Shown here in pieces: positions 10,148 to 62,035 of a stretch of DNA of 64,000 nucleotides. Numbering within the stretch: position 1 is the stretch's first letter; every line of letters starts with the position of its first letter. The DNA lies in the NCBI GenBank assembly GCA_019308905.1, contig JAFDHF010000003.1, positions 10,282 through 74,281 on the forward strand, in the 5' to 3' direction. The notes beneath the pieces were generated by a model. It made no database searches. It was not told the DNA's origin and saw nothing but the letters and a program-made list of their open reading frames with translations. The DNA comes from Deltaproteobacteria bacterium (GTDB lineage Bacteria; Desulfobacterota; BSN033; WVXP01). The position numbers and the translations under genes are program-made.

Positions 10148-13100
10148 GTGGTCCGGGGATACGCCTCCCCGCCTTTGCTCCCGAATAACAACAAAAGACA
10201 TCCATGGGTACCTTGCCTCACCGGCCCGGTCTCCGTCTCAGGCATGGGTTGGTACGGCCTTTGCTTCCAAGGCGGTGGATATTTCCCTGACCGGAAAAGC
10301 AAACTGGAGGACGGGGTGGCTACCGGGTCGTGTCTCAATATCCTCACCTTCAACTGGCATGAGGCTTATCTGACGATGCTCGCCCGAACAGGGCATCTTT
10401 TCCACGCGGTGGAGGTCGCCAAGGGGGGACACTTCGGGTGGCAATACAACATGCGACCTCTCCCTGAAAACATCACCCTCCTGCAGGAGGCGGAGGCCCT
10501 CGCAAGGCTCCGGGCAGGGGATTTCGACCTCGTGGTATGCCATAACATGAGGGACCTTCTGGCAGTCGAAGGGGTCGATATCCCCAAGATCCTCGTGTTT
10601 CACAACAAGATCTCCACCGAAATCGCCCTGGGAGGCCACAGGGCCACAGCCGAACAGTACCGTACCGGGATCCGTGACCTTGCGGCAAGAAACCGTCTGA
10701 CCCTTGTCTTTATCTCCGAGTCTAAGCGGGAGAACTGCGCACTGGAAGGACCCGTGATCCTCCCAGGGATCGACCTGAATCACTACGGCGGGTATAAGGG
10801 GGAGGTGGAGCGGGTTCTCAGGGTGGGCAACCTCATGAAAGAACGGGACATCATGCTCGGGTTCTCATGGCAGGAGGAGATCCTGAGGGGTATCCCCTCC
10901 ACCCTTGTAGGAATCAATCCTACGGTTGCCGAGTCGAGAGTGTCGGAAAGCTGGCAGGATCTGAAGAACCACTATCAGAGCCACCGCCTTTTTCTCAACT
11001 CCACCCTCCATCCGTGGGAAGACGGGTACAACCTGGCCATGCTGGAGGCCATGGCCACGGGGATGCCTGTTGTCTCCATTGCGAACCCGACATCCCCGAT
11101 CGTGGACGGCATAAATGGTTACATTTCTCAGGACACGGCTTATCTGAGGCATAGGATCGAAGAACTTCTCTCGGACAGGGAAAAGGCCTCCGAACTCGGG
11201 AGGCAAGCCCGGAAGACTGTGGAGAAGCGGTTTCCCATGGCCCGGTTCGTCCGAGGCTGGAACCGTCTTTTCGAAAAGGTCATGGAGAGATCGACGAATC
11301 CCGCGATCCCCCGCTGGCGGAGAAATCCCGAGTGGTGTCGAGGCGGTCGCTCTCGGTCCACGAGGGAAAACACTGTTGGGATGAAAAACGTCCTTCTCTG
11401 CTATACCTCCAACCCGACTACGACGGGATGCTACCTGGAGAGAAGCTTCAGAAGGCATCACAACGTTATCACCTGTGGTCCTGCTATCAGCCGGGAAATG
11501 ATCCGCGCCTGGAACCTTGAAAACATGAAGGAGAAGCCCAGGACTCATGATTTTTCCTCGGCTTCAGTGGATCTGAGGGTTGTCATGGGATCCGTGGGCA
11601 AGGTTTGGCGCCCCGACTTCTTGCTCTGGGTCGAGACGGGGATCTGGTTTCCCCTGGAGGGGCTCGATTCACTCGACTGCCCCAGGGCCTGTTACCTCAT
11701 CGACACCCATCTGCACAGGGATCTCCATCTCAGGTGGGCCAGAAACTTCGATGTGGTCTTTCTGGCCCAGCGGGCCTATATCCCGATTTTCCAGGAGGCA
11801 GGGATAGAAAGGGTCTACTGGCTTCCTCTGGCCTGTGATCGTGATATCCACGGCAGGAAGAGGGTAAAGAAGCGCTATGATATTGGGTTCGTAGGGAGCA
11901 TCACCGCTGGAAACCAGAGGAGAATCGTTCTTCTCGATCGGCTTTCAAAGCGTTTTGATCTTCATGTTGAGAGATGTTTTCTCAAGGACATGGCCCGTGT
12001 TTTCAGTGCTTCGAGAATCGTCTTCAACAACGCCATCAAAGATGATCTCAACATGCGTATTTTCGAGGTCCTTGCCAGTGGAAGCCTTCTCCTTACCGAC
12101 AGGGCCAGGGGGAGCGGGCTCGAGGACCTCTTCCAGGACAGGGTCCACCTGGTGATCTACGAGGACGAGAGTCTGGAAGATATCGCCGGATACTATCTCG
12201 ACCATGAGGAAGAGCGGGAGGCCATAGCGGCCAGGGGAAGAAGAGAGGTCCTGATGAGGCATACCTACGACCACAGGGTTCGGGAGATCATCAACAGGCT
12301 CGGGGACGTGAGCCAACAGGGCAGTCGGAGGGCTTCCTGGAGGGCAATGAGAGGATTCAGGCGGAGGCCTCAGCAGGGGCCGAGCCCCGCGAGTTCGATT
12401 CCAGGTGAGAAACTCGAAGAGAAGGGCTGCCTGACCGAAGCGAGAGAGCGATATTGGGAGCGGTTGAAGAGAGACCCATCAGACAGAAGGGCGCTCATGG
12501 GGCTCGGCAGGATCTCCATCCGGTTTCAGAAGTGGCAGGCCGCAGAGTCATACCTCCAGAGGGCGGTTGATGTGGAGGAGGATTGGGAGTCGCTCTTTCT
12601 CCTGGCGAGGTGCAAGATGAATTCTGGAAAGCAGTCAGAGGCACTGGCCTATCTCGACAGAGCCAGGGATCAGGACGGCCGGGATCCCCGTCGTCGGACG
12701 GCGGTGCTCAGCGCCATGGGGGAGTGCCTGGGACAATTGGGTGATTACGAAAGAGCAGAGGCGAGCTTTGTCGAGGCCGCCGGTGTGGACCCCTCTTCCG
12801 ATGAGGCCTGGACCGGCTTGGGAGAGGTCGAAAGTATGAGAGGGAATCACGAAAAAGCAGAAGGGGCCTTTCGAAAGGCCGTCGGTATCAACTCGAAGAA
12901 CGATCGTGCCCGGTGCGGCCTGGGACTCGCCGTGTGGGAGCGGGGCAAAAGGGACGAGGCCATCGAAATACTCCAAAGGGCTCTCGACATAAACCCCGAA
13001 AACCTGGTCTGCCTGAACCGTCTTCTCGGATGCTGCCGCGAGGAGGGGATGTTCAATGTGGCGGAGAGGTATCTCAAGGAGTACCTGAGGGTCCATCCCT

Positions 13101-13333
13101 TGAATTGCGAGGTTCTTTACGGCTTGGGCTCGCTCTACTACGAGTGGGGGCGGTACGAGGAAGCCAGGAGAGCGGCGGAGACGATCCTCATGTTCGAGCC
13201 GAACCACAAAGGAGCAAATGAGATGACAGCCCTCCTCGCGGGCAAGGAGGAAAAGGGAAGTGAGGGGCGGCCCCCTCTGCCCGATCCGGGGGGTCCCGGG
13301 TCCTGGAAAAAGCAAGACCGGCCTATGCCTTGA
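10148..13333 (+). CDS. Multidomain glycosyltransferase: GT4-like + CgeB-like (Glyco_trans_1_2/DUF3880) + C-terminal TPR
   Basis: N-terminal part has EDGYNLAMLEAMATGMPVV (GT4 E-x7-E). The middle part has FEVLASGSLLLTD...HTYDHRVREI, CgeB-like. C-terminal about 300 aa are TPR repeats. Start uncertain (10148 or ATG 10244). Confidence 0.7.
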   Translation: MVRGYASPPLLPNNNKRHPWVPCLTGPVSVSGMGWYGLCFQGGGYFPDRKSKLEDGVATGSCLNILTFNWHEAYLTMLARTGHLFHAVEVAKGGHFGWQYNMRPLPENITLLQEAEALARLRAGDFDLVVCHNMRDLLAVEGVDIPKILVFHNKISTEIALGGHRATAEQYRTGIRDLAARNRLTLVFISESKRENCALEGPVILPGIDLNHYGGYKGEVERVLRVGNLMKERDIMLGFSWQEEILRGIPSTLVGINPTVAESRVSESWQDLKNHYQSHRLFLNSTLHPWEDGYNLAMLEAMATGMPVVSIANPTSPIVDGINGYISQDTAYLRHRIEELLSDREKASELGRQARKTVEKRFPMARFVRGWNRLFEKVMERSTNPAIPRWRRNPEWCRGGRSRSTRENTVGMKNVLLCYTSNPTTTGCYLERSFRRHHNVITCGPAISREMIRAWNLENMKEKPRTHDFSSASVDLRVVMGSVGKVWRPDFLLWVETGIWFPLEGLDSLDCPRACYLIDTHLHRDLHLRWARNFDVVFLAQRAYIPIFQEAGIERVYWLPLACDRDIHGRKRVKKRYDIGFVGSITAGNQRRIVLLDRLSKRFDLHVERCFLKDMARVFSASRIVFNNAIKDDLNMRIFEVLASGSLLLTDRARGSGLEDLFQDRVHLVIYEDESLEDIAGYYLDHEEEREAIAARGRREVLMRHTYDHRVREIINRLGDVSQQGSRRASWRAMRGFRRRPQQGPSPASSIPGEKLEEKGCLTEARERYWERLKRDPSDRRALMGLGRISIRFQKWQAAESYLQRAVDVEEDWESLFLLARCKMNSGKQSEALAYLDRARDQDGRDPRRRTAVLSAMGECLGQLGDYERAEASFVEAAGVDPSSDEAWTGLGEVESMRGNHEKAEGAFRKAVGINSKNDRARCGLGLAVWERGKRDEAIEILQRALDINPENLVCLNRLLGCCREEGMFNVAERYLKEYLRVHPLNCEVLYGLGSLYYEWGRYEEARRAAETILMFEPNHKGANEMTALLAGKEEKGSEGRPPLPDPGGPGSWKKQDRPMP

Positions 13334-14558
13334 TCCTCAGGGGAGAGCGGTGTCAACCCATACTGGCAAGGTCAGCCTTTACATACCCTGCCGAAACGCA
13401 GAGAAGCATCTGGAAAAGACTCTGAGGAGTGTCTTCTCCCAAACCCACCCGCTTCTCGAGGTCATCGCGGTGGACGACGGGTCCGAAGATCGTACGGGGG
13501 AGATTCTCGAGTCTTACGGGGTCAGAGTCGTCAGGCATCAAGAGCCCATGGGGATCACCCGGGCGCGCAATACCGCCCTCCACCATGCCAGAGGGGAATT
13601 CCTCGCCTCTGTCGATGCGGATGTCGTGCTCGAACCGGACTGGTTGGAGAAAATCATGACCAACTTCTCCGAAGGGTTTGTGGGGGGTGTTGGAGGGAGA
13701 ATCGTCGAAAGGAACGTCGATTCTCTGGTGGGGAGGTGGATCCTCGCCCACCGGAATCCAGACAAGGGAGAGACAAAACTGGTACCCCCGGCCCTTCCGA
13801 CCACGGCCGTGGTCTACAGGAGAAAGACCCTCCTGGAGATCGGCGGGTTCAACGACGATAAGCGTTACGACCACTCCGACCTCGACGCCTCAATGCGGGC
13901 GGTCATGATCGGATACAGGCTCGTCTATGAACCCGAAGCCACGTGCTATCACTACTTTCAGGGAGACATACGAAGGCTCTTTGACGGGATGTGGCGGTTC
14001 AAGAAAGACGCCTATGTGAACTGCGGGCTTTTTGTCAACCCCTTTGGTTTGAGAAGAAAGGTCGAAATAAACCTTGGCGAGTTTTACCAGATGCTGATGG
14101 ACGATTTCGGCGCTGGAAGGCGCACCATCATGCCTCTGGATATTATCGGGGCATTGCGTCATTCCCTCATGGACATCCGGCTTTATTGCAGACTCCACCC
14201 AGACCACATCAGAGGTCTTGAAGGGGACACCTTTGGAGCCCTGAAACTCGGGCTCCGATACATTCTGGAGCAAAAGGAGGCTGTCTCCGGCCCGCTGGCA
14301 GCGGATATTCTGAGAGAGATCTGGGACATTTCCGTGGACTCCGCAAGAGAGGGGGCGTTGTCCGAGTCCGCAGGGGGAAATGGGAATGTCGGCCTCTCCG
14401 GTTTTCTCAGGGCCCGGTTTCCAAGGGCCGATCTGGAGAGGGTCTCGGAGTGGCTGACCATGTTCCTGGGCTTCCTGAACAGTTTTCCCGACGAGATATG
14501 GGAAAGCATGAATAGACCGGCCGAGCAAGCAGGCCGGAGTATGACGGATCAGGGTTGA
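13260..14558 (+). CDS. GT2-family glycosyltransferase
   Basis: SLYIPCRNAEKHLEKTLRSVFSQTHPLLEVIAVDDGSEDRT...SVDADVVLEPDW is a GT-A DxD fold. Start uncertain (ATG 13260 overlapping the upstream gene, or GTG 13350). Confidence 0.8.
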   Translation: MRGGPLCPIRGVPGPGKSKTGLCLDPQGRAVSTHTGKVSLYIPCRNAEKHLEKTLRSVFSQTHPLLEVIAVDDGSEDRTGEILESYGVRVVRHQEPMGITRARNTALHHARGEFLASVDADVVLEPDWLEKIMTNFSEGFVGGVGGRIVERNVDSLVGRWILAHRNPDKGETKLVPPALPTTAVVYRRKTLLEIGGFNDDKRYDHSDLDASMRAVMIGYRLVYEPEATCYHYFQGDIRRLFDGMWRFKKDAYVNCGLFVNPFGLRRKVEINLGEFYQMLMDDFGAGRRTIMPLDIIGALRHSLMDIRLYCRLHPDHIRGLEGDTFGALKLGLRYILEQKEAVSGPLAADILREIWDISVDSAREGALSESAGGNGNVGLSGFLRARFPRADLERVSEWLTMFLGFLNSFPDEIWESMNRPAEQAGRSMTDQG

Positions 14559-16084
14559 GGGCAGAGCATATGGAAAAGACGATGGCTGAAACCGCAAGCT
14601 GGAAGGCAGGGGAAGGCGACGTCAGGGTCTTCGACACCCACCCGGAAGCCGTTGCCCTTCAGCCTTTTTGTGTGGGAAAGGGTGTGGACGTGGGGTGCGG
14701 CTTCAGGAAGACACACCCCGACGCGATCGGTATCGATTTGCTGGGAAAAGGTGAGATAGGGCAGTACGGTTGCATGGAGGGAATGCCCTCTGTTGCAGAC
14801 ATAAAGGCATCAGGGGACGATCTCTACATGTTCAAAGACGGGGAACTCGACTACGTGGTGAACAGGCATAATCTCGAGCACTATGTGGACGTCGTCAAGA
14901 CTCTTTGGGAATGGAAGCGGGTGCTTAAGATCGGAGGAGTGCTGGGCATGGTCCTTCCCGATGAGACCAGACTCGATACCATAGCTCTCGATCCCACCCA
15001 TAAGCATGTTTTCACGCCCGAAAGCATAACGAACCTACTTGTATTGATCGGTGGGTTTCGGGTGGAGAAGGTCGAGGTCGTAATTCCCGACTGGTCATTC
15101 CTCGTGGTCGCAAGGAGGGTCGAGGAGAAGGGGGCGCTGGGTAAAACGTTACCGAGTGGGCTGTTCGGAGAACTTCGGTCTTGCCTTCCGGAGCGGCGCG
15201 GATCCTTGCAGCAGGAAGACTCGGATTCGGCTTGTGAAGGATCTGCCGTGGCGACAAGTACGTACAGCCATATACCCACAATTATCCGTTTCCTGAAAAA
15301 GACAAGGCCTTCGTCGATTCTCGACGTGGGCGTTGGAAACGGGAAGATCGGCTTTGTTGCGAGGGACTACCTCGATGTGATGCTGGGCCAGAGAAACAGG
15401 AGAAAAGACTGGAGAGTGAGGATAGACGGAATCGAGATATTCTCTGACTATATCCAGGAACATCAGAAGGCCGTTTACGACAGTATCTTCATCGGTGACG
15501 CCTTGGATGTCATCCAGAAGCTGGAAAGATACGATGTTGTCATCCTCGGCGACGTGGTCGAGCATCTCGAGAAAGAAAGGGCAATGGATCTGCTGGACGC
15601 ATGTGCTTCTCGGTGCGGTTACATGATTCTGGCCATGCCACTGGGAAGGAACTGGAAACAACCCGCCGTGTACGGCTACCCCTCCGAGGAGTGCTGCTCC
15701 TTTTGGCAATACGAGGAGTTCAAGCCTTTTGTCTGTGATGAGGAGCTCTTCTCGTTTTCCGGTACCGGTGACTACGGGTGCTTTCTCGTGCAAACCGAGG
15801 ATTATCTTCACCATCGTACAAGGGAGAAGGCGGACGCCCTCTTCTCGGAAGGAAAGAGGGATCAGGCCGTGGCGTACATGGAGAATTCGATCCGTCAACT
15901 TCCCCCAAACGTGGAGAGTGAGTATATCCTGGTGGACCTGCTTCTCAAGAGCGGCAGGATCCGGGAGGCGGTGGATCGCCTCAAAGGGATTCTGAATGTA
16001 TTCCCCGAGAACAGGGCGGCCAAGCGGTATCTTGGCATGCTTGCCGAAAAGACTACGGTAGCTTCCCAACCGGGGAACCAGTGA
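14555..16084 (+). CDS. Tandem class I SAM-dependent methyltransferase domains + C-terminal TPR
   Basis: Two motif-I glycine loops (VDVGCGFRK... and ILDVGVGNGKIG...), each followed by acidic motifs. TPR-like C-terminus. ATGA overlap with the upstream gene. Confidence 0.75.
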   Translation: MRAEHMEKTMAETASWKAGEGDVRVFDTHPEAVALQPFCVGKGVDVGCGFRKTHPDAIGIDLLGKGEIGQYGCMEGMPSVADIKASGDDLYMFKDGELDYVVNRHNLEHYVDVVKTLWEWKRVLKIGGVLGMVLPDETRLDTIALDPTHKHVFTPESITNLLVLIGGFRVEKVEVVIPDWSFLVVARRVEEKGALGKTLPSGLFGELRSCLPERRGSLQQEDSDSACEGSAVATSTYSHIPTIIRFLKKTRPSSILDVGVGNGKIGFVARDYLDVMLGQRNRRKDWRVRIDGIEIFSDYIQEHQKAVYDSIFIGDALDVIQKLERYDVVILGDVVEHLEKERAMDLLDACASRCGYMILAMPLGRNWKQPAVYGYPSEECCSFWQYEEFKPFVCDEELFSFSGTGDYGCFLVQTEDYLHHRTREKADALFSEGKRDQAVAYMENSIRQLPPNVESEYILVDLLLKSGRIREAVDRLKGILNVFPENRAAKRYLGMLAEKTTVASQPGNQ

Positions 16085-16123
16085 GGTGGAAGCCCGGTCG
16101 CTCGATCCCATGGAGAGATACCA

Positions 16124-17821
16124 TTGGCGAAGTTGGTCTGGGCCAGCCTGGATGACTACCTGCCCCCTGGCAAGGGTTTTGGGTGTGTGGGCAGAAGCGT
16201 GGCAAACCACGCCTTCTTCCAGGCTCTCATGAGATACGGCCGTTTCGACGAATACCACTTTTTCCTCGCAAACGGGAGTCACAGGAGGGCCTTCGAGACG
16301 GGCCACGGAGGCTTTCTGGAATCCGTGGGTGCGAGCAAGAAGGTGAGACTATTCGACCGCTTGGACCTACCGGAGCAGGTGAGCAAGTACGACTATACGG
16401 TCTTTCATCAGGGCGATCACATAACCTACTTCAACTCTCTCTGCCACTTTCGTAACCGATCGGCTTCCTTCCCTGTCACGGCTTTCATCCACTCGTTGAG
16501 CTATCAGAGCTTTATGAGCACCTACCTCCAGATGACCCTCGGGGGGGTGACATGCTCTGATGCGTTGATTTGTTCGTCCGTGAGTGGGAAAAAGGTACTC
16601 GAAAACTGTTTTGGACACATTGCCCGTCAGTTGAAAAGAGAGCCCCCCTCCGTTCAGATGGAGGTCATTCCGCTCGGGGTGGACGGCGGGGGCATGTACA
16701 AACTCAGCCGGCGTGCTGCCAGGAAGCGGCTCGGGCTTGATGAGAAGGAAGTGATCGGGCTCTGTTTCGGCAGATTCTCAGACTACGACAAGATGGATCT
16801 CTTCCCACTGTTGCAGGCCTTCCAGATGATTCTGAGAGCGGGCCGGCCGTGGAGACTGATCCTGGCCGGGGCCGTTCACGTGGAGGCCTATCTTGAAATC
16901 TTGAAGCTATGGGCCAGGGTTTTGGGAGTTTCCAATAGGGTGACTTTTCTCACCAACCTCTCAGAGGAGGAGAAGGCAGCTGTCTACGGGGCTGCCGACT
17001 TCTTTACTTCCGTCAGCGACAACCCCCAGGAGACCTTCGGGATTACCCTTCTGGAGGCCATGGGATGGGGGCTCCCCCTCCTTGTCTCCGACTTTGACGG
17101 ATACAGGGAGATCGTCACCGAGGATGTGGGAAGGAGAATCGCGACCACATGGGGCGACTTTGAACCCTTCTGGAAGCTGAGCCCTCTGATGGACGAGGTC
17201 ACCCTCCATCGATATCTCGGCCAGTCGGTCTGTGTGGACGTGGAGGGACTGGCCGACGGCCTGGAGTTCTTCTTCTCGGACCCGGATCGCTGCCGGGAAA
17301 TGGGAATGGCAGCCAGAGAACGATTCTTGAGGCTCTACGACTCACGCGTGATCATTCCACGGTTGGAAGCCCTCTGGACGAGGCTGAAAGAGGGTTTTCG
17401 TCCCGGCCCCGGAGCTTCCTGCGAAGACCCTCTGGCCATGAAGGCCTTTCCCTGCTTCTCGCACTATGTGACCCAGACTCTGAGTCACGAGATGAGGATA
17501 AGAACCACCCGGTTTGGGCGGAGCCTGCTGGCTTCAGAAGTGCGGTATCCCCTGCTCTCGGGGATGGGCCGTCTGGTAGATCCTGAAGAAACAGGTCTTG
17601 TTATGGCCCAGGCAATGGACCCCTGTTCGGTCGGCCAGATTTTGAGGAGCGCCGAGCACCAAGAGTGGAAGAGGCGCTATCTGATACTGTGGATGCTCAA
17701 ACACGGCCTCTTGCAGTTTGTTCCGCATACTGATCGAGAAGGGAACAGACATGCCCCGGAACAGGATGAAACGAGTCCGCTGCTCTTTGCAGGAGACACA
17801 GGGCGTACGGTCCATCGGTAG
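16124..17821 (+). CDS. GT4-family glycosyltransferase
   Basis: C-terminal half ...ETFGITLLEAMGWGLPLLVSDFDGYREIV is a Glycos_transf_1 signature. TTG start. Confidence 0.75.
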   Translation: MAKLVWASLDDYLPPGKGFGCVGRSVANHAFFQALMRYGRFDEYHFFLANGSHRRAFETGHGGFLESVGASKKVRLFDRLDLPEQVSKYDYTVFHQGDHITYFNSLCHFRNRSASFPVTAFIHSLSYQSFMSTYLQMTLGGVTCSDALICSSVSGKKVLENCFGHIARQLKREPPSVQMEVIPLGVDGGGMYKLSRRAARKRLGLDEKEVIGLCFGRFSDYDKMDLFPLLQAFQMILRAGRPWRLILAGAVHVEAYLEILKLWARVLGVSNRVTFLTNLSEEEKAAVYGAADFFTSVSDNPQETFGITLLEAMGWGLPLLVSDFDGYREIVTEDVGRRIATTWGDFEPFWKLSPLMDEVTLHRYLGQSVCVDVEGLADGLEFFFSDPDRCREMGMAARERFLRLYDSRVIIPRLEALWTRLKEGFRPGPGASCEDPLAMKAFPCFSHYVTQTLSHEMRIRTTRFGRSLLASEVRYPLLSGMGRLVDPEETGLVMAQAMDPCSVGQILRSAEHQEWKRRYLILWMLKHGLLQFVPHTDREGNRHAPEQDETSPLLFAGDTGRTVHR

Positions 17822-17858
17822 ATGATGGAGATCGGGCGAGTCACGGGCGGTTTGTATT

Positions 17859-18842: not shown

Positions 18843-19095
18843 GACGGGGACGACATGATCGGATCTGCACCCGGCTCGGCAAGGCGTTCCGTCTTTCCGA
18901 TGTGAATGGCCATCGCTTTCCTGGAGCGAGGATTTCTCGCCTCGCGGGAGGGAGGAACGATCTTCCCAGGGGTTGTCAAGGGGCCGGCCTCGGATGTCAA
19001 TAACCCGTACGGGTGACTCTCTGCTTTTCTGATCAATTTCCTCCTCGGCCAGACTTCTTTGGCCTTCCGGTCTTCCGTGGTGAACAGCCCCCAGT

Positions 19096-19111
19096 GGCAC
19101 ACTAATTGCTT
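19096..19111 (+). promoter_or_regulatory. Sigma-54 (RpoN) -24/-12 promoter
   Basis: TGGCAC-actaa-TTGCT is an exact match to consensus TGGCAC-N5-TTGCW. It lies 42 nt upstream of the NusG-paralog start. Confidence 0.6.
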
Positions 19112-19713: not shown

Positions 19714-20086
19714 GAACCACCTTCCACGATCCATCGATGCCTACAACGCAAGGGTTTTGACAAACTCTGACATCGAAGGGGACGAAGTGCAGCCAGGCAG
19801 TGCGTGGTGGTATCGAAAGATGGGCCGCAGGGCACCTTTCTTCTCAGCCAAAGGGGCTCAAGTGGGACCTGATTCCTGCCGATAATGACCATATAGTGAA
19901 TGGACGGTCGGCTGTCCATCTCCAGTACGATCTCAGAATTTCTCCCGCGGACTGCAACACCCAAAGGTACAGCGAAAGGGACGAAGTGTGTTCCCCCGGC
20001 GCCGTTAGGAACGGTATTGTCGACCGAGACATCTCTCTTTCCAGGGTAACCATGTAGTGAATGGATAGTCTCTTCAAGGAAGCGAA

Positions 20087-23229: not shown

Positions 23230-23348
23230 GAGGGCGTTATCAAGAGGTTGAAGGCCTTGGTCCAGCACGGAGATTTCACCGCTTATCGGAATCCACCTCT
23301 TCTGGCAGTGAATTCCTCACCTCACCACTTTGCATAGGAGTCGATGCG

Positions 23349-24032: not shown

Positions 24033-24126
24033 GCACATCCGGGTTTTCCGAGCTTGTCCCTTGCCCTGATCAAGGTCCGCGAGTGGTCGATAGCCATGTA
24101 CTGGCCTGGATAAGAGGAATCCTCCC

Positions 24127-47859: not shown

Positions 47860-47902
47860 GACTAGGTGGCGATTCTCTCAGTTCTTTGTGAAAGGGTAGG
47901 TC

Positions 47903-49057: not shown

Positions 49058-49104
49058 CGGTCACCGAAGAATGCGCCTTTCAAACCCTATCTGGATATGA
49101 GGCT

Positions 49105-50998: not shown

Positions 50999-51073
50999 AT
51001 GGAGTTTTGTCCCGCCCCGTGGTGCCGGACCTGTGTGATCAGGCGGGAATAGGATTTGCTTCGCTTCGGAATC

Positions 51074-55049: not shown

Positions 55050-56685
55050 AATGGGGGACGTCCTCCAATCATCGGCGCTCGTCCAGGGCATCAGGGAGAA
55101 GAACCCGGATGCCATGGTCACCTTTCTGACAAGTGAGAAGACAAGGGACGTGGCCAGCAGTATAGGTGGTGTTGACGACGTCATCAGTCTCGATTTTGGC
55201 CAGGCTTCAGGCATTGCAAGTGACCGAGAGGCCGGGCTGTCGGAAAGGTACCGTCGCCTGTCGTCCCTCTTGAATGATCTCAAAGGGAGATGTTTTGATC
55301 TTGTCTATAATCTCAACTACTCGTGTGTGAACACCGGTCTGATGAACCTGATCCGCTACAGAAGAGCCCTCTGTTACAGCCTCGACACCAGCAGGAGGCA
55401 GATCGTGAAGAGCCCGTGGCTCAGCTACCTGTTGAGCATGCTGGGAGACAGACGGCTCAACCTGTTCAATCTCGTCGATCTGTATCTTAGGGGATCTGGA
55501 CTTTCCGTTCGGAAACCCTCCCTCTCTTTCCAGTTGGACAGAAGGGCCATGGACTCAGTCGACCGGTTCCTCACCGGGCAGGGTATCCAGCACCGGGAAC
55601 GGTTGGTGGGGTTCCAACTGGGGGCAGGCGACTCGGTCAGGTGTTGGCCCGTTGATTCCTACAGGGTTCTGGCAGATCGGTTGATCCGGAGACGGGGTGT
55701 GAGGATTCTCCTTTTCGGCACCTCCTCTGAGACGCCCCAGGCAGAGGCGCTGAAGGCGTGTTTCACGGCAGAAGGGACGGACCCGACCCGCAGGGGACTG
55801 GTCATCGATCTCGTTGGGAAGACCAGCACCAGGGAGCTGGCCTGCTTCTTGAGGCGTTGCGACCTCCTCGTAACGCCGGATACGGGCACCATGCACCTTG
55901 CCTGCGCCGTCGGCACCAGGGTTCTCGCACTTTTCATGGGATCGGCATTTCCCCATGAGACCGGCCCTTATGGCACGAATCACTTCGTTCTCCGACCGGT
56001 GCTTCCTTGCTATCCCTGTTTTGAGGGGGGGCCTTCCTGCACCAGTCAGGAGTGCAAGAGACTGATCCGGCCCGAGAAGGTGGCCCTCGTGGTGGAGAGA
56101 CTCCTGGCCGGGAACAACGGGGATCTGGAAAAGGGAGTGTCTGACTTCCTCGATTCGAACCTGATCCTTCTCCGCTCGGCAATGACACCCGATTGCGTCG
56201 GGTACAGCAGGGTCTGCCAAAGCACCGCTTCTCTTGAGGACGTCTTTGCCCTCGCATACCGCGCCATGTGGCAGGGCGTGCTCGATGAGGACCGGATCTG
56301 TGACTCCTCCGGGCAGGCGAATGTCCTGGAAGCTCTCGCCGTGCCTTTGCACGGTGGAGACCTGGTCGGTGATTTGAAGGAGGCCGAAAGGGATTTTGAC
56401 AGACTTCAAAGGATGCTCGCGGCCTACGGTGCATCGATGCGGGGTGGAAATGGCCCGTCGGGCCCAGACTTGAACCTCATGGCGGCCACCCTGAGATCAG
56501 AGGAGGACAAGAGGAGTAGGTGGGCAAAGCCGATACCGCGTTTCTTCGACGTGGAGTATGCCAATATCCGACTCTCCGGGAGAGATGTCAACAGGCGGGT
56601 GGAGAGACTGGTGGGAGGGCTTGCCTGGGGGGCCGGCTTCATGAAGGCCTTTGTCAGGCGGTTAGTGAGAACTCTCTCTTCCTGA
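55009..56685 (+). CDS. GT9-like (heptosyltransferase-fold) glycosyltransferase with C-terminal extension
   Basis: KVLVIQLARMGDVLQSSALVQGIREKNPDAMVTFL and TPDTGTMHLACAVGTRVLALF match the GT9 N-terminal and nucleotide-sugar-binding motifs. Confidence 0.7.
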   Translation: MSSMQKVLVIQLARMGDVLQSSALVQGIREKNPDAMVTFLTSEKTRDVASSIGGVDDVISLDFGQASGIASDREAGLSERYRRLSSLLNDLKGRCFDLVYNLNYSCVNTGLMNLIRYRRALCYSLDTSRRQIVKSPWLSYLLSMLGDRRLNLFNLVDLYLRGSGLSVRKPSLSFQLDRRAMDSVDRFLTGQGIQHRERLVGFQLGAGDSVRCWPVDSYRVLADRLIRRRGVRILLFGTSSETPQAEALKACFTAEGTDPTRRGLVIDLVGKTSTRELACFLRRCDLLVTPDTGTMHLACAVGTRVLALFMGSAFPHETGPYGTNHFVLRPVLPCYPCFEGGPSCTSQECKRLIRPEKVALVVERLLAGNNGDLEKGVSDFLDSNLILLRSAMTPDCVGYSRVCQSTASLEDVFALAYRAMWQGVLDEDRICDSSGQANVLEALAVPLHGGDLVGDLKEAERDFDRLQRMLAAYGASMRGGNGPSGPDLNLMAATLRSEEDKRSRWAKPIPRFFDVEYANIRLSGRDVNRRVERLVGGLAWGAGFMKAFVRRLVRTLSS

Positions 56686-56701
56686 GAAGGGATAGCGAGC
56701 C

Positions 56702-58537
56702 ATGGACCTTTTTGAAAGAAATCTCAAGATTCTCAATCGGATCGACGGTAGTCTCGCCAGGAGAATGGAAAGAACCAGGGCTCTGCCCTCAGCCGAAGTC
56801 CTCGAGGCAAAAAACGGCAGCCTGACATTGAAGGTCGATGGTGCGGCCTTGCACAGCACGTACGATCCGGTGAGAGAGGCGATGGTCTCGGTGGAGAGAT
56901 TCCTGGAAAAGGAGCCCGGGCCGGGGCCGATCTTCGTTCTGGGCCTGGGGTTCGGATACCATGTGGAGAGGCTTCATAGGGCGGCTCCCTCCTCGCCTCT
57001 GATCCTTGTCGAGCCCACTCCGGGGATCTTTCGACTCGCCCTTGAAAAGATCGAGATGGAAGGAATCCTCGCGCCGTGCCGCCGTGTTTTCGTGGGAGAG
57101 GCCGTTGATGAGGTCTTTGCCAGAATCAATGAGAAATCCCTTCTCCGAGGCGGGTACCGGGTCTTCGTGCACCCCCCGTCCCTTAAGATGAGCCGGGCCT
57201 ATCTCGACCGGCTGCTTGCCGGGCTTGAGGCAAGGGAGATTCTGGCAGGACTGAGGCTCAACATACTGGTCGTGCCACCGGTCTACGGGGGATCCCTCCC
57301 TGTCGCCGACTACTGTGTCCGAGCCCTGAGGAGAATGGGCCACACGGTCACCACGGTTGATAACTCAAAATATCTCGGACTCTTCAAGGAGATCGAAGGG
57401 GTTACGACCAATCGGTTTCACCAGCGTCAGTTGCAGGGTTCTCTCACCCAGCACCTCTCGGAGATCGTGATGGCAAGATGCCTGAACCTGAAGCCGGACT
57501 TGATCCTCGCCCTGGCCCAGGCCCCACTGACTCCTGAGATTCTTGACAGGATGAAGAGGTTTGGGATGCTCACGGCATTCTGGTTCGTGGAGGATTTCAG
57601 GGAGCTTCCCTACTGGAGAGAGGTGGCGGCTGGATATGGTCATTTTTTTGCCATCCAACGTAGAGAGGCCTTTGAAGAATCGGGCGGACTCGACGGAGTG
57701 GATTTTCACTATCTGCCCCTGGCCTGTGACCCACGTGTTCACAGGCCAGTGATACTCAATGACAGGGAGAGAAAACGCTACGGTTCTGAGGTCTCCTTTG
57801 TAGGAGCCGGCTATTACAACCGGCGCGTGTTTTTTGAGGGGCTCCTTGATTTGGATTTCAAAATTTGGGGAACAGAATGGGATCTCCTATCTCCTTTGAG
57901 CCGTGCGGTCCAGGAAGGGGGCCGGAGGGTCACAGCCCGGGAAGCCGTAAAGATCTTCAACGGGTCAGCGATCAATGTCAATCTCCATTCTTCCACATAC
58001 CACAGGGGGGTCAACCCGGCAGGGGATTTTGTCAACCCCAGAACCTTTGAGATCGCATCGAGCAGGGGGTTTCAACTCGTCGACCGCCGGTCCGACCTGG
58101 GTGAGCTGTTCCAACCCGGCCGGGAGCTCGTCTGCTTCGAGACCATAGAGGATCTCCGAGACAAAATCGCCTACTATCTGTCCCACAGAGAGGAGAGGGA
58201 AGAGATTGCGGCAAATGGCCAGAGGAGGGCCCGAAGGGATCATACCTATCAGAAGAGGATGACAAGGATTCTGGAAGCGGTAGTGGAAGGGAACCTCTCC
58301 CGTTTCAGGGAACTAAAAAGGAGCATCCAGACACCGGAGCGGTTGATCGCCGAGGCAGGGCCCGAAACGGAGCTCGGGCGATTCTTGAGGCGTTTCAGGG
58401 ACAGGGACCGCCTGACCCTGGATACGATAACCTCCGAGATCCGCCGCGGCCGGGGGAGGCTCACCGAGCCTGAGGTTATCTTCCTTTTAATGGAGGAATT
58501 CTCCAAGCAGGGCAGGAAAAGTCTGGGAGAGCAATGA
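56702..58537 (+). CDS. Maf-like (DUF115) + CgeB-like (Glyco_trans_1_2) flagellin glycosyltransferase candidate
   Basis: N-terminus MDLFERNLKILNRIDGSLARRME...IFVLGLGFGYHVERL is DUF115/Maf-like. The C-terminal half (...FEIASSRGFQLVD...REEREEIAANGQRRARRDHTYQKRM) is CgeB-like. Confidence 0.65.
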   Translation: MDLFERNLKILNRIDGSLARRMERTRALPSAEVLEAKNGSLTLKVDGAALHSTYDPVREAMVSVERFLEKEPGPGPIFVLGLGFGYHVERLHRAAPSSPLILVEPTPGIFRLALEKIEMEGILAPCRRVFVGEAVDEVFARINEKSLLRGGYRVFVHPPSLKMSRAYLDRLLAGLEAREILAGLRLNILVVPPVYGGSLPVADYCVRALRRMGHTVTTVDNSKYLGLFKEIEGVTTNRFHQRQLQGSLTQHLSEIVMARCLNLKPDLILALAQAPLTPEILDRMKRFGMLTAFWFVEDFRELPYWREVAAGYGHFFAIQRREAFEESGGLDGVDFHYLPLACDPRVHRPVILNDRERKRYGSEVSFVGAGYYNRRVFFEGLLDLDFKIWGTEWDLLSPLSRAVQEGGRRVTAREAVKIFNGSAINVNLHSSTYHRGVNPAGDFVNPRTFEIASSRGFQLVDRRSDLGELFQPGRELVCFETIEDLRDKIAYYLSHREEREEIAANGQRRARRDHTYQKRMTRILEAVVEGNLSRFRELKRSIQTPERLIAEAGPETELGRFLRRFRDRDRLTLDTITSEIRRGRGRLTEPEVIFLLMEEFSKQGRKSLGEQ

Positions 58538-60279
58538 CGTTGAACCGTGGGGGAGGCAAGAAGATACTGATCATCAATCTGGCCCGCATGGGTGATCTCC
58601 TCCAGATGACGCCCTTCCTTAAAGGATTTTGCAGGGAACGGCCTGGCGTGAGAATCACCCTTCTGGTTCTCAAGGAATTCTACGACGTCTGTAAAGGTTT
58701 TCCCTGCGTCGAAAGCGTGGAGACCTTCGATGGGGACGGCTACATTTCACGTCTGGAAGACCCGGGTTGTTCTCTTGTCGAAAACTTCAAGACGATCCAA
58801 GATCTGGTGGAGGACCTGAGAAACAGAGGGTTCGACACGGTCATCAATCTGACCTTTTCGAGACTTTCCGCTCTGCTCACCTACCTGCTCATGGTCGAGG
58901 ACGTGCGAGGAATAACGATCGACGACCATGGAAACCGCCTGGTGAAAAACCCCTGGATCAACCACTTCTACAACATGGTCACCAAACGGGAGATAAACCT
59001 CTTCAACTATGTGGATTTCATCAGGAAGGCCGGCGGATCGGATTCACCCTCTTCCATGCATGTGGACATCTCAGAGGCCGATCAGAGGTTCGCGGGAGCC
59101 TTCTACGCTCGCCGGAGCGTCTCGGATGAAGATTTTGTGGTGGGCTTTCAGCCAGGAGCCAGCAAGGAGAGCAGGAGGTGGCCCACCAGGTCCTTCGGAG
59201 ATCTGGGAGGAGCCCTGATCGAGGATGGAGCCAAGATCCTTCTCTTTGGGACTGCCGCGGAAAAAGAACTCGGGGAAGGGATCGGCCGATGCCTTTGCTG
59301 TGCCCAGGACCGTAGGGAGGGGCATCTGTTCGACATGACGGGGAAGACCTCTGTGGGACAGCTCGCTGCCCTGATCAAGAGGTGCGACCTCCTGGTTACG
59401 GGTGATACCGGCACCATGCACGTAGCCACGGCCGTGGGCACTCGAGTGGTGGCCCTCTTTTTTGGGCCCGCCTTCTATCCTGAGACCGGTCCTTACGGAG
59501 AGGACCACCTTGTCATACAGACCGATCTGCCCTGTGCACCCTGCGGTCACGACGTGCGGTGCAAGAATCCCCGGTGCCGGGAATCGATCAAGGTTTCCCA
59601 TGTCTTACAGGTGATTAGAATGATACGGGAGGGTTTTCCGGAGAGAGAGGTACAGGTCAAAGACGGCCCCGAGTGGGCGGGGATCAGCCTCTACCGGGGA
59701 GTTTTCGACGAGGAGGGGATGCTCGAGTTTCGTCCGGTGATCCGGAGGCCCCTCGCACCCATGGACCTCATCCGCCAGGTCTACCGGGAGATGTGGAAGA
59801 TCGTGCTGGACGGACGGCCCGGCAAGATCGATCCCGCCAGGGTAGGCGAGAAGGTGAAGAGCCTCTTTGCCCTGGACGGAGTCCGATTGAATCTGGATAG
59901 GGAATCGGAAATCTTCGAGAGAGTCGCCGGGCTCGCCCGTGAGGGGAGCGAGATTTCCCGAAAGCTGGTCCGATGGGCCGGAGACGTGCGAGAGCACCTC
60001 GCCTCGATAAAGAAGGCGGGAGATGTGATCCACCGCATCGACGAAGAGATCGAACTCCAGGGAATGGCCCACCCCGCATGCCATCCTCTGACCTACATGT
60101 TTCGCCAGGGCAAGGAGAACCTCGAAGAAGGGGACCTGGGCCTTTTGTCGAGAAAGACACTCGGGCTCTATGCGACCCTCCTTCGCGAGGCTGTCCTGAT
60201 GAGGTCCGGTCTGCAGGAGACCCTGGCCTGTCTCAAAGGGCCTCCACTGGGGAGAGAGACAGGAGATGGCTCTTTTTGA
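58534..60279 (+). CDS. GT9-like glycosyltransferase with C-terminal extension (paralog of 55009-56685)
   Basis: KILIINLARMGDLLQMTPFLKGF and GDTGTMHVATAVGTRVVALF. Collinear with the upstream GT9-like gene. Confidence 0.7.
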   Translation: MTLNRGGGKKILIINLARMGDLLQMTPFLKGFCRERPGVRITLLVLKEFYDVCKGFPCVESVETFDGDGYISRLEDPGCSLVENFKTIQDLVEDLRNRGFDTVINLTFSRLSALLTYLLMVEDVRGITIDDHGNRLVKNPWINHFYNMVTKREINLFNYVDFIRKAGGSDSPSSMHVDISEADQRFAGAFYARRSVSDEDFVVGFQPGASKESRRWPTRSFGDLGGALIEDGAKILLFGTAAEKELGEGIGRCLCCAQDRREGHLFDMTGKTSVGQLAALIKRCDLLVTGDTGTMHVATAVGTRVVALFFGPAFYPETGPYGEDHLVIQTDLPCAPCGHDVRCKNPRCRESIKVSHVLQVIRMIREGFPEREVQVKDGPEWAGISLYRGVFDEEGMLEFRPVIRRPLAPMDLIRQVYREMWKIVLDGRPGKIDPARVGEKVKSLFALDGVRLNLDRESEIFERVAGLAREGSEISRKLVRWAGDVREHLASIKKAGDVIHRIDEEIELQGMAHPACHPLTYMFRQGKENLEEGDLGLLSRKTLGLYATLLREAVLMRSGLQETLACLKGPPLGRETGDGSF

Positions 60280-62035
60280 GAGGAACCGGGAGGCCCTGGC
60301 AAGGACCTTTCCCAAACTGGCCGAGAGGATCGACAGGGCCCCCGATAAGAGCGGGTCTATCGATGTCTTCCCCTCCCGTCGAGGGCCGATGACCTGTAAG
60401 GCCTTGGGCTCCGACGGCCGATGGTTGACCCTCCATAGCACGGTGGATCCAGACAGGGAAGCAGTGCTCACCCTCAACAGGGTCAAGGATCTGGACAGAG
60501 GGATCGTGGTCGTACTGGGGATGGGCCTGGGGTACCCGCTTCTGGCCCTGGCAAGACGGCTGGGGAAGGGCCGGAAGGTCGTTTTCGTGGTGGAGAGAGA
60601 CCCGCTGCTGTTCCGGCTCTCCATGCAGCTGTTCGACTGGACGGGGCTCCTGGCGAGGAGAGACCTCCATCTCCTGATCGGGGATGAAGTCGACGAGATC
60701 CTCGGGACGGTCACAAGAGTCCGTATGAGATCCGGGTTTCAGGATCTGGTGGTCATTCCTCACAGGCCTTCGATCCGGAGAGATCCGGGCTTCTACGGCC
60801 CCCTGTTGGACCAGTTGCGCCTTATCGAAGCCTCGCCGCTCAGGTCCAGGCTGGACTACAGGCACCTGAGACGAGATCAGCTGACGGTTCTGGTGCTGGA
60901 TTCGCATTACTTTCTCGTCAGAGAGTGCATAAAGGCGCTCAGGAAACTAGGGCACAGGGTCCTGAGGGTTCCCCTGTCCGAGACTGGACTCGTAGGGTCG
61001 ATCCTCGGCCGGGTCGTAAGGGAGAGACCGGACTTCCTCCTCTCGGTGAATCACCTGGGCTTTGACGAAGATGGAAAACTGACCGACCTTCTCGGAGCAC
61101 TCAGGCTGCCCTACGCGGTCTGGTATGTCGACAGTCCGACCTTCATAATAAAGGACTTCAGGAGAAACATCTCCTCGTACTGTGCCCTCTTTGTCTGGGA
61201 CCGGTCGTATTTGGAACGGATGAGACAGTTTGGATTCGACCACGCCTGCTACCTCCCCCTGGCCACGGATCCTTCGGTCTTCAGGCCGATAGTGCCGAGT
61301 GCCGTGCCCGCCCGCTTCCGGGGGGCGGTCAGTTTTGTGGGCAACTCGATGAAGGAAGCCGTTGATGAGTGGTCCAGGCGGTTTCCCCATAGCGAGCGGA
61401 CAGAGGCCGTTTCACGCCTGGCTGTCGCGTTCCAGATCAGCCACCCCCATGTATCAATGGAAACGATTCTCGAGACCGTCGGCAGGGAGCAGGGCCTGCG
61501 GGTTGAGTTTGAAGATCCGGTCCACTATCTGAACTTCCAGGCCTCACTGGTATGGCGGGCCACCCTGGAGTTCCGAAAGAGGCTTGTGGAGAGCCTGGAA
61601 ACCCTGGGCATTCGGATCTTCGGAGACAGAGGGTGGCGTCAGATTCTGGACGGGAAGGTGAAAATATCCCCCCCCGTGAGTTACTACAGAGATCTACCCC
61701 TGGTTTTCAACGGTACGGAGGTGAATATCAATGCCACGAGCTTTCAGATGAATTCCGCTGTAAACCAGCGGGTCTTTGACGCGGCCTCTTGCGGAGCATT
61801 TCTCGTAACCGACTATCGACCGGATATGGACATCCTGTTCGACCGGAAACGGGAAGCGGTCTGTTACGGAGATCCGGCCGAGGCCAGGGACCAGGTGGCA
61901 TACTATTTGAAGCACGAGGGGGAAAGGATGAAGATCGCCGAAAGGGCGAGACAGAGGATCCTGGAAGAACATACCTACTGTCATCGGATTCGGGAGTTGA
62001 TAGACGTCATGAGGGAGAAGTTCGGATCTTTCTGA
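60266..62035 (+). CDS. Maf-like (DUF115) + CgeB-like glycosyltransferase candidate (paralog of 56702-58537)
   Basis: MALFERNREALARTFPKLAERID...VVVLGMGLGYPLLALARRL, and C-terminal VFDAASCGAFLVTDYRPDM...EEHTYCHRIRELI. Confidence 0.65.
   Translation: MALFERNREALARTFPKLAERIDRAPDKSGSIDVFPSRRGPMTCKALGSDGRWLTLHSTVDPDREAVLTLNRVKDLDRGIVVVLGMGLGYPLLALARRLGKGRKVVFVVERDPLLFRLSMQLFDWTGLLARRDLHLLIGDEVDEILGTVTRVRMRSGFQDLVVIPHRPSIRRDPGFYGPLLDQLRLIEASPLRSRLDYRHLRRDQLTVLVLDSHYFLVRECIKALRKLGHRVLRVPLSETGLVGSILGRVVRERPDFLLSVNHLGFDEDGKLTDLLGALRLPYAVWYVDSPTFIIKDFRRNISSYCALFVWDRSYLERMRQFGFDHACYLPLATDPSVFRPIVPSAVPARFRGAVSFVGNSMKEAVDEWSRRFPHSERTEAVSRLAVAFQISHPHVSMETILETVGREQGLRVEFEDPVHYLNFQASLVWRATLEFRKRLVESLETLGIRIFGDRGWRQILDGKVKISPPVSYYRDLPLVFNGTEVNINATSFQMNSAVNQRVFDAASCGAFLVTDYRPDMDILFDRKREAVCYGDPAEARDQVAYYLKHEGERMKIAERARQRILEEHTYCHRIRELIDVMREKFGSF

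Follow-up and report, generated by a model that had tools for sequence, protein, structure and literature searches.

What does a long block of glycan-modifying genes do in the middle of a flagellar locus? The question is raised by a stretch of 64,000 nucleotides (hereafter the window) from an uncultured Deltaproteobacteria bacterium (GenBank assembly GCA_019308905.1, contig JAFDHF010000003.1, positions 10,282 to 74,281), in which 37 curated plus-strand genes, spread over about 52 kb between positions 10316 and 62035, follow the flagellar genes fliC-flaG-fliD-fliS. An earlier note on this DNA, made from the sequence alone, had proposed that the whole block builds one elaborate glycan on the 280-residue flagellin. 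We favour, with modest confidence, a mosaic flagellar glycosylation island, most of which would be directed at flagellin, with a periplasmic side arm. Genes of the block and its downstream border are called g13 to g53; coordinates are those of the window, on the plus strand unless stated otherwise, and related loci carry our own numbers (L005 to L020).

A conserved frame around a variable slot

Gene order is what ties the island to the flagellum. Nine related loci were inspected and mapped with tblastn, and in nine of nine readable loci the orthologs of g13 and/or of the genes at the far end of the island, which encode proteins like glycosyltransferase (GT) family 9 (GT9) and Maf-N::GT4 hybrids, lie between fliS and a DUF8042/fliT-like gene pair or beside other flagellar genes. 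On four metagenome contigs (L011-L014) fliC-flaG-fliD-fliS is followed by the g13 ortholog, a Maf-N::GT gene, a GT9 gene and the g52 ortholog. Where the contig reaches g52 (L011, L012), the interval from fliS to g52 holds three genes in about 8 kb, versus 52 kb here. The g13 ortholog directly follows fliS in L010-L014, and in L010 g14 adjoins g13 as well. At the other end, L005-L007 keep g48-g49-g50-g51-g52-g53 together with response regulators, at 45-64% identity, and their genes 5' of g48 are unrelated. Relatives of g51 number in the hundreds, and the nearest is 63% identical; the metagenome-assembled genomes (MAGs) that carry them bear such labels as Nitrospirota, Desulfobacca and Geobacteraceae.

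Synteny thus shows a frame, made of a GT fused to tetratricopeptide repeats (TPR; g13) on the 5' side and of the GT9 and Maf-N::GT4 genes (g48-g51) on the 3' side, which encloses a variable slot, filled here with about 41 kb of exchangeable cargo. In the same position relatives carry tailoring genes for sulfotransferases, AsnB-type amidotransferases, methyltransferases, radical S-adenosylmethionine enzymes with a SPASM domain (rSAM-SPASM) and a canonical Maf(DUF115)-TPR protein. A complete Nitrospiraceae genome (L008) has a sulfotransferase, methyltransferases, AsnB, a GT4-methyltransferase and a GT-TPR ahead of a pair of Maf-N genes, beyond which come GT9 and DUF8042 genes, a response regulator, PilZ and MotAB. 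In L009 the run from flgI to fliW and flgM is followed by two Maf-N genes and then by a CMP-transferase, DegT, PIG-L, WbqC, two rSAM-SPASM genes and a methyltransferase. The locus is of a known kind, embedded in late flagellar genes and variable in content between fixed flanks; among its kind it is very large and has an unusual composition. Compared across relatives, as the earlier note had suggested, the interval from fliS to the response regulator indeed keeps the same flagellar borders and varies in what it contains. The slot of L006 carries a canonical MptE/DUF115-TPR Maf (321-2414) plus GT2 genes, and the slot can therefore also host classical Maf systems.

Parts of the cargo itself recur elsewhere. 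In L016, g20, g21, g23 and g24 are colinear, as are g27-g35 and g37; L017 has g29-g30 and, further on, g31-g32 in the same order; and L020 conserves the unit g18-g19-g20-g21, including the fusion encoded by g20.

The flagellin and the frame enzymes

The presumed substrate is small. The fliC gene (6362..7204; Pfam Flagellin_N/C) encodes a 280-residue flagellin of domains D0/D1 only, with a short central stretch (residues 135-200) in which 18 of 66 residues are Ser or Thr. It has a near-consensus sigma-28-type promoter (TAAAGTCC-N12-ACCGATAA; 6149..6176) and a 5' untranslated region of about 185 nt with GGA motifs (together 6149-6361), directly downstream of csrA-fliW (5181-6070). Such an arrangement would suit translational control of flagellin by CsrA/FliW, known from Bacillus and Campylobacter.

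At the upstream end of the frame, g13 (10316..13333) combines, by Pfam, a GT4-like module, a DUF3880/CgeB-type GT-B module and a long C-terminal TPR region. The rest of this first sub-operon (13260..18842; Pfam) consists of a GT2 (g14), a tandem S-adenosylmethionine (SAM)-dependent methyltransferase with TPR (g15) and two GT4 enzymes (g16, g17). We know of no described counterpart to a TPR region fused to a tandem methyltransferase as in g15. Just ahead of the downstream part of the frame, g47 (52635..55049) is a KpsC/TagF-like GT-B enzyme with a C-terminal TPR region and weak matches to Capsule_synth, Glyphos_transf and the BFO_1060 family; it is the best candidate for the ulosonic-acid transferase. 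TPR domains are thus found on g13, g15, g41 and g47. Since FlmG and Maf-1 bind flagellin through their TPR module (PMC7591256; bioRxiv 10.1101/2023.12.03.569772), these domains would by analogy point to a protein substrate.

The frame cassette proper (55009..62035) comprises two GT9-like proteins, g48 (558 residues) and g50 (581 residues), alternating with g49, a Maf-N::DUF3880::GT4-type GT-B protein, and g51, a Maf-N::GT4-type GT-B protein. The GT9-like region of g48 and g50 spans residues ~9-330 (PDB 3TOV, E 1e-23; heptosyltransferase II, E 1e-16) and is followed in each by a C-terminal extension of about 230 residues that has no family match. Pfam finds on g49 and g51 only Maf_flag10_N (PF20157), DUF3880 and Glyco_trans_1_2, and not the MAF_flag10/DUF115 domain (PF01973, MptE-like), the catalytic domain by which Maf is defined (bioRxiv 10.1101/2023.12.03.569772). 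In an AlphaFold2 model of g51 (53 sequences; mean predicted local distance difference test score 91.8) the catalytic part is a GT4-type GT-B. With DUF115 not found and a GT4-type GT-B in its place, g49 and g51 are Maf-N::GT-B hybrids rather than Mafs. Of the two Maf/CgeB-like genes of the earlier note, the Maf_N, DUF3880 and Glyco_trans_1_2 architecture stands, without the defining domain. The Maf-N domain of g51 (residues 80-165 of the product of 60266-62035) has a Rossmann-like core in which a GxGxG motif (G85, G87, G89) and E110 are invariant in 53 homologs; in this it resembles a site for binding a nucleotide or SAM more than a module that binds only protein.

Regulation of the island

Not every gene of the island encodes an enzyme: g18 and g19 code for regulators. 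Gene g18 (19153..19713; protein MBW2056231.1) encodes a specialised NusG paralog with NGN and KOW domains (Pfam NusG E 4e-8, KOW E 4e-6). Its best match is UpxY (77.5 bits), compared with 28.4 bits for housekeeping nusG, and it reaches no curated family cutoff (UpxY 77.5 against 100; RfaH 52.7 against 144.5; LoaP 44.4 against 125). Gene g19 (20087..20707), with an ortholog in L020, encodes a MarR-type winged helix-turn-helix regulator with a Rossmann-like C-terminal domain.

Promoters of the sigma-54 type were searched for in the whole window with TGGCAC-N5-TTGC, one mismatch allowed; shuffled sequence gave a mean of 2.49 matches per 128,000 strand-positions. The window has four matches, two of them in plus-strand spacers that head sub-operons, and in the 586 nt of those spacers about 0.01 would be expected by chance. 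One is a sigma-54-like promoter, TGGTACggcctTTGC, in the fliS-g13 spacer (10250..10264). The other is a perfect match, TGGCACactaaTTGC (19095..19109), upstream of g18 and followed by the motif CCAyxCAyyGAATGGAC. The latter site and its motif are conserved in L020 (485-499), where the g18 ortholog is 65% identical. Moreover, exact sigma-54 motifs lie 55-110 nt upstream of the first glycosylation genes in L005 (4689-4703), L006 (4601-4615) and L009 (11948-11962, 13842-13856). A sigma-54 input to the island is therefore likely, and because such sites precede the glycosylation sub-operons of this island as well as those of related flagellar loci, the pattern suggests that these genes belong to the RpoN-dependent tier of flagellar expression. 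A sigma-28 candidate within the island (19859-19885, -10 element GCCGATAA, poor -35) is weak and was not relied on.

Between g18 and g19 lies a spacer of 373 nt that holds two copies of a leader unit (GAArGGGACGAAGTG ... ACCATrTAGTGAATGGAyrGT; 19763..20086), of which L020 keeps a single copy. Conserved leader motifs occur in the window at 19114-19134, 19770-19789, 19888-19909, 19969-19988 and 20049-20070, and in L020 at 500-525, 1160-1180 and 1290-1312; across both, they read GAArGGGACGAAGTG and ACCATrwAGTkAATGGAyrGT. The exact form AGTGAATGGA was not found in other loci, the L020 version differing by two bases, and the motifs have no match in Rfam. The CCAT-N7-ATGG palindrome within the second motif might serve the MarR-like g19 as an operator, or form part of an antitermination element.

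Chemistry of the cargo

Which sugar might the central cargo make? The genes g20-g24 (20750..25214) comprise a fusion of a KdsC-type haloacid dehalogenase (HAD) phosphatase, a NeuB-type synthase and a SAF domain (g20), a GT-B-like protein (g21), a GmhA-like SIS isomerase (g22), a CMP-sugar synthetase (g23, CTP_transf_3) and g24. The fusion type is 508 residues long and is also found in L020. Its HAD domain, N-terminal to NeuB, scores 165.5 bits with TIGR01670 (cutoff 107) and matches KdsC (E 4e-34) and BT1713 (E 2e-26) in the PDB. The NeuB domain is divergent: it is clear to Pfam (E 3e-77) and stays below the equivalog cutoffs (NeuB 311 against 400; PseI 221 against 340). A scan of genome contigs with the NeuB fusion gave distant matches only.

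Upstream enzymes for pseudaminic acid (Pse), legionaminic acid (Leg) or N-acetylneuraminic acid (Neu5Ac) were looked for among the 37 island genes, and no match to Polysacc_synt_2, Epimerase, DegT, Epimerase_2, NeuC or a PseH-type GNAT was obtained; such enzymes could be encoded elsewhere in the genome. A phosphatase working with a NeuB-type synthase is the hallmark of phosphorylated routes, namely those to 2-keto-3-deoxy-D-glycero-D-galacto-nononic acid (KDN) in Bacteroides thetaiotaomicron and Prymnesium and to Neu5Ac in animals (PMC6200933). Because a KdsC-type phosphatase is fused to NeuB here and Pse/Leg enzymes were not found, we infer that the product is a non-amino ulosonic acid of the KDN or 3-deoxy-D-manno-oct-2-ulosonic acid (Kdo) type, made from a sugar phosphate. 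The closest parallel is the KDN pathway of B. thetaiotaomicron, which likewise has a NeuB-family synthase (BT1714), a C0-type HAD phosphatase (BT1713) and a CMP-synthetase (PMC6200933); a synthase with such a phosphatase implies a phosphorylated aldose as substrate, the candidates being mannose 6-phosphate (for KDN), arabinose 5-phosphate (for Kdo) or a heptose phosphate. Unlike the known KDN and Neu5Ac-9-phosphate routes, phosphatase and synthase are here one protein, and a GmhA-like isomerase adjoins. Thus the nonulosonic-type glycan of the earlier note remains plausible given NeuB and the CMP-synthetase, with the KDN/Kdo type likelier than one that depends on Pse-, Leg- or Neu5Ac-specific enzymes. 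In L020 (2019-5565) a g21-like gene and then a short (316-residue) GT9 come after the HAD::NeuB fusion; the pairing of a ulosonic acid with a heptosyltransferase-like enzyme is reminiscent of the way Kdo and heptose are linked in the inner core of lipopolysaccharide (LPS).

The remaining cargo is rich in tailoring enzymes. An AsnB-type glutamine amidotransferase (g25) and a GT4 (g26) occupy 25218..28270, and a B12-binding rSAM (g27), a flavin (FAD) enzyme of the amine oxidase family (g28), a FemAB-like acyl or aminoacyl transferase (g29) and a polysaccharide deacetylase-like protein (g30) follow at 28267..33032. A SAM-methyltransferase (g33), an rSAM-SPASM (g34), a second B12-rSAM (g35, whose nearest match, under the cutoff, is the Sden_1168 P-methyltransferase type) and a sulfotransferase (g36) lie at 36873..42065, and a GT4 (g38) at 43135..44379. 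The last run (45582..52627) has a TPR protein (g41), a SPASM/twitch rSAM (g42), an rSAM (g43), a GT2 (g44), an rSAM-SPASM (g45) and an FAD_binding_2 protein resembling NadB and fumarate reductase (g46). The two B12-rSAMs are possible additional methylases.

Almost all of the earlier inventory is borne out by Pfam and NCBIfam. The SIS isomerase, the KdsC::NeuB fusion, the NeuA-like protein (CTP_transf_3), three GT2 and two GT9-like enzymes, the multidomain GT-TPR, six rSAM enzymes (two B12-type, three SPASM-type, one plain), the sulfotransferase, the AsnB amidotransferase, the FemAB-like protein and both FAD enzymes were all recovered, the deacetylase weakly so. Of the six GT4 enzymes counted before, four are stand-alone (g16, g17, g26, g38), the others being the GT4-like module within g13 and, at marginal significance (E 0.018), one in g21. 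Three methyltransferase genes with four domains become two with three (g15, g33), and the tandem pair in one gene (g15) holds.

The periplasmic arm

Only three membrane proteins are encoded in the island. Two of them, g31 and g32 (33042..36901), are paralogous polytopic glycosyltransferases; g32 has the GT-C fold by fold comparison and bears an additional C-terminal Rossmann-like domain. No family could be assigned to them by Pfam (E up to 5), NCBIfam, a word-based search or exhaustive HMMER, the last of which, run on 1.84e9 representatives, placed six proteins in this orphan family. An acidic motif, CSPENFD (E133), does not vary among the six aligned sequences. On a 2.9-kb contig of a second MAG (JRH07_17220, MBW2123563.1) lies a partial copy, 100% identical, of g32 (34595-36901; protein MBW2056245.1, JRJ26_01985), so that the organism, or at least the island, has been sampled twice. 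The third membrane protein, g37 (42129..43211), is a GtrB/ArnC-type polyprenyl-phosphate GT2 with two C-terminal transmembrane helices; it matches GtrB sll0501 (PDB 5EKP) over residues 2-306 at E 2e-83 and ArnC at E 2e-40, and has a colinear ortholog in L016 (64%). It is the likely donor supplier for g31 and g32. No GtrA-type flippase or other multi-transmembrane protein was found in the island.

GT-C enzymes use polyprenyl-phosphate sugars at the inner membrane's outer face. Glycosylation of flagellin takes place in the cytoplasm, ahead of chaperone binding, and its export is by the channel of the flagellar type III secretion system. Because it works on the periplasmic face, the arm formed by g37, g31 and g32 is not one for flagellin before export, and most likely serves another, envelope-located acceptor.

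Borders and organization

The island is located between fliS and the DUF8042/fliT-like gene pair. Upstream, the window carries flgI, a flgJ-like rod-binding gene, flgM, flgN, flgK, flgL, csrA, fliW, fliC and flaG (by Pfam), then fliD and fliS; the last three of these genes span 7265..10039 (Pfam). The first island gene, g13, is opened by its reading frame at 10148 (1061 residues), but its start is most likely the GTG at 10316, because in every homolog the alignment begins no earlier than residue 63 of the longer frame and a GGAGG ribosome-binding site adjoins, 6 nt upstream. With this start the spacer after fliS is about 276 nt, and not 109 nt as had been stated.

The block has a coding share of 95.6% and only four gaps above 100 nt. 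Sixteen neighbouring pairs overlap, six of them by 4 nt (ATGA/GTGA/TTGA), in line with the frequent start/stop overlaps described before. That it forms a co-directional 52-kb island is correct for the plus-strand genes, which number 37 rather than about 40; the direction is broken once, by a frameshifted and truncated remnant of an ISNCY-family transposase on the minus strand (44290..45437), recognised from profile matches and accompanied by a local dip in GC. Two adjacent minus-strand open reading frames (ORFs) match positions 7-103 and 173-345 of the 444-position transposase profile, and weak terminal inverted repeats flank the remnant (44374-44393 and 45552-45571). Two plus-strand ORFs that overlie it (g39, 44506-45165; g40, 45177-45536) have odd composition and lack family matches, and were rejected as genes. 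GC at third codon positions is uniform with the flagellar flank, with a mild dip only at g37-g45 around the remnant, and a recent horizontal origin from composition was rejected. Campylobacter-style phase variation was rejected as well, G/C runs of 7-8 nt occurring at about chance frequency. A generic scan for sigma-70 promoters and terminators over 5.8-21 kb gave nothing above shuffles and no terminator between the sub-operons. Rfam found nothing, either in the whole window at the gathering threshold or in 18.8-20.8 kb at an E-value threshold.

Downstream of 62035 lie g52, g53, a small ORF and a response regulator with a REC domain. The first two (62058..63132) form the flagellar border: orthologs of g52 carry DUF8042/DUF8043, and g53 is a FlgN/FliT-like chaperone, whose Pfam match (E 2e-5) falls short of the gathering score. 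The three small hypothetical ORFs that the earlier note saw here therefore include a DUF8042-family gene and a FlgN/FliT-like gene. A 77-residue ORF (63211-63441) has a sigma-28-like site upstream (TAAGTTT-N11-GCCGATTA, 63142-63168) and is directly followed by the response regulator, which has a coiled-coil tail and runs from 63441 to the window end. Past the response regulator, orthologous loci encode an RR-GAF-HD-GYP-type protein and a PilZ protein; a module of cyclic di-GMP and motility control thus abuts the island.

A proposed mosaic island and its alternatives

How would such a mosaic work? In the reading we favour, the frame enzymes would bind unfolded flagellin in the cytoplasm via their TPR or Maf-N domains and O-glycosylate its Ser/Thr-rich central stretch before it is bound by FliS and exported. 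The island would be fed by at least two sigma-54 promoters (10250 and 19095); the second would drive g18, which could keep RNA polymerase reading through the long downstream operon, and g19 and the duplicated leader may add further control. A sugar phosphate, for which g22 is a possible supplier, and phosphoenolpyruvate would be condensed by the NeuB part of g20; the KdsC-type phosphatase fused to it would remove the phosphate from the product, and g23 would activate that product with CMP. The glycan might then be extended by GT2 and GT4 enzymes and modified by C- or P-methylation and redox chemistry (the six rSAMs), O/N-methylation, sulfation, amidation, deacetylation and re-acylation, with the TPR enzymes g15, g41 and g47 working directly on the flagellin-bound form. 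The cargo came together by recruitment, as the insertion sequence (IS) remnant and the exopolysaccharide (EPS)-type affinities of several genes show.

Several points weigh against this reading. The window has no canonical flagellin glycosyltransferase of the DUF115 Maf type, and the GtrB/GT-C arm cannot be squared with modification of flagellin in the cytoplasm. The proposed promoter and antitermination roles are deduced from sequence. Outside the clade, the nearest contexts of g18 homologs are non-flagellar: such homologs head, at 50% identity, a nonulosonate/AsnB locus (L018) and, at 49%, an EPS locus that runs from deacetylase and AsnB to exosortase EpsH/EpsI (L019). The best matches of g19 are in the MarR_EPS family (37 against a cutoff of 88), those of g29 in pepcterm_femAB (40 against 260), and g25 is nearest to XrtA/PEP-CTERM amidotransferase 1 (627 against 817). 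Finally, the comparison of the central cargo with L016, L017 and L020 covers only the shared genes themselves.

Alternatively, two systems might share one flexible site: only the frame and first sub-operon (g13-g17, g47-g51) would serve flagellin, and g18-g46, under NusG-paralog and MarR control of its own, would be an envelope glycan system (modifying LPS, capsule or EPS, of the exosortase-EPS type) with export and priming machinery encoded elsewhere. The nearness of g18 to the UpxY capsule antiterminators and the EPS relatives of g18, g19, g25 and g29 fit this view, as do a GtrB homolog and two GT-C enzymes that act in the periplasm, spacers of 310 and 373 nt with a separate promoter that set the block apart, and an IS remnant that speaks of insertion activity. 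Against it, the Pfam and NCBIfam searches found no Wzx flippase, Wzy polymerase, ATP-binding cassette (ABC) transporter, priming phosphoglycosyl transferase, polysaccharide co-polymerase (PCP, chain length), outer-membrane export (OPX) gene or exosortase in the island, and three membrane proteins are few for 52 kb. The resemblance to PEP-CTERM/EPS markers is real, but all of these matches stay below their curated cutoffs and family membership is not reached; the deacetylase marker TIGR03006 has no match. The same enzyme types (sulfotransferase, AsnB, methyltransferases, rSAM-SPASM, CMP-transferase) stand beside Maf-N genes in the flagellar loci of relatives, the TPR-fused g41 and g47 sit inside the block or at its end, and the block is co-directional, tightly packed with the frame and of the same third-position GC as the flagellar flank. 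We regard two systems as a serious possibility, though a rather unlikely one.

The single glycan of the earlier note, built on the 280-residue flagellin by all 52 kb including the GT-C enzymes, finds support in position, co-directionality, translational coupling, the conserved flagellar frame and the missing exporter genes. By synteny, the link of the island to the flagellum is indeed strong, and the TPR domains and the lack of an exporter fit a role in flagellin glycosylation. That role does not extend to g37, g31 and g32, whose donors are used in the periplasm while flagellin is glycosylated in the cytoplasm, and the central cargo has regulators of its own, an IS remnant and several transcription units; that everything serves one glycan seems very unlikely to us. 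More improbable still is that the rSAM-rich stretch g41-g45 (perhaps with g34/g35) is a cassette for maturing a ribosomally synthesized and post-translationally modified peptide (RiPP) or a cofactor. Its SPASM/twitch rSAMs are nearest to maturase families (tungsten cofactor, peptide), far below cutoffs, and a TPR protein adjoins; but no precursor-peptide ORF, protease or transporter was found, the GT2 g44 is interleaved and overlaps g45, and rSAM-SPASM genes are interleaved with DegT, WbqC and formyltransferase sugar genes in L009 and with GTs in L016 and L017.

The mosaic reading could be taken further. The frame, with its Maf-N::GT4 hybrids, long GT9-like partners and a GT-TPR, might represent a previously undescribed class of flagellin glycosyltransferase systems in uncultured Deltaproteobacteria and Nitrospirota; in this genome it would have captured an EPS-type operon together with a NusG-paralog antiterminator on a sigma-54 promoter. 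The outcome might be a sulfated, methylated and amidated oligosaccharide in the style of the LPS inner core (KDN/Kdo-type acid plus heptose) that replaces the missing D2/D3 domains, with the GtrB/GT-C arm putting related sugars on the envelope. We offer this full version as speculation, and doubt that all of it will hold.

Flagellin glycosylation has been worked out in few pathogens and model organisms, almost all of them using Maf or FlmG with Pse or Leg. The present locus and its relatives suggest that another set of transferases beside fliS (Maf-N::GT4, GT9-like, GT-TPR) is in use across a large and uncultured portion of the bacterial tree, and that the variable slot is able to absorb whole EPS-style operons with their regulators. 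If true, this would mean new protein-directed glycosyltransferase families, the first flagellar glycan known to be controlled by a NusG paralog and sigma-54, a route to a KDN/Kdo-type sugar by way of a fused phosphatase-synthase, and a newly revealed orphan GT-C family. Location alone is no proof that each island gene acts on flagellin.

Comparison with known systems

Among the described flagellin glycosyltransferases, FlmG of Caulobacter and Maf-1 of Shewanella are the nearest in architecture, though in architecture only, since g13 and g47 pair a GT-B-type region with TPR. As in Maf-1, the TPR region is C-terminal; compared with FlmG, the domain order is reversed and g13 has two GT modules. 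The Maf family itself (e.g. Magnetospirillum Maf, PDB 5MU5) differs from g49 and g51, which share its N-terminal domain without DUF115.

The regulators recall RfaH, UpxY and LoaP, in that g18 has the NGN and KOW domains, heads a very long co-directional glycan operon and is followed by a long conserved leader. Unlike these, g18 falls below every family cutoff, has a sigma-54 promoter and is paired with a MarR-like gene. In the papers searched we found no link between NusG paralogs and flagellin glycosylation, and nothing relevant on radical SAM enzymes, heptosyltransferases or sulfotransferases in flagellin glycosylation islands. The periplasmic arm resembles the Gtr and Arn systems through a GtrB-type enzyme with a transmembrane hairpin (g37) and GT-C-fold transferases; it differs in that a GtrA-type flippase was not found, the GT-C family is an orphan and the location within a flagellar island is unusual.

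With the islands of Campylobacter, Aeromonas, Pseudomonas aeruginosa and Geobacillus, the locus shares a large strain-variable block of sugar and transferase genes among late flagellar genes, with a NeuB-type synthase and a CMP-synthetase. In contrast to these four, no DUF115 Maf or Pse/Leg enzymes were found here, and six rSAMs, a sulfotransferase, GT9-like enzymes, a GtrB/GT-C arm, a NusG paralog and a MarR regulator are present; the homopolymer signature of Campylobacter-type phase variation is not seen. The flagella locus of C. jejuni NCTC11168, cj1293-cj1342, counts 50 genes (PMC13130089), so that the claim that the present island, with 37, exceeds the Campylobacter locus fails on gene number. 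Its size is not exceptional, variable islands of about 50 genes being well known. What is new lies in its elements: a frame that is neither Maf nor Pse/Leg and is widespread in uncultured lineages, a unit of NusG paralog and sigma-54 promoter, a fused phosphatase-synthase, an orphan GT-C pair and the density of rSAM enzymes.

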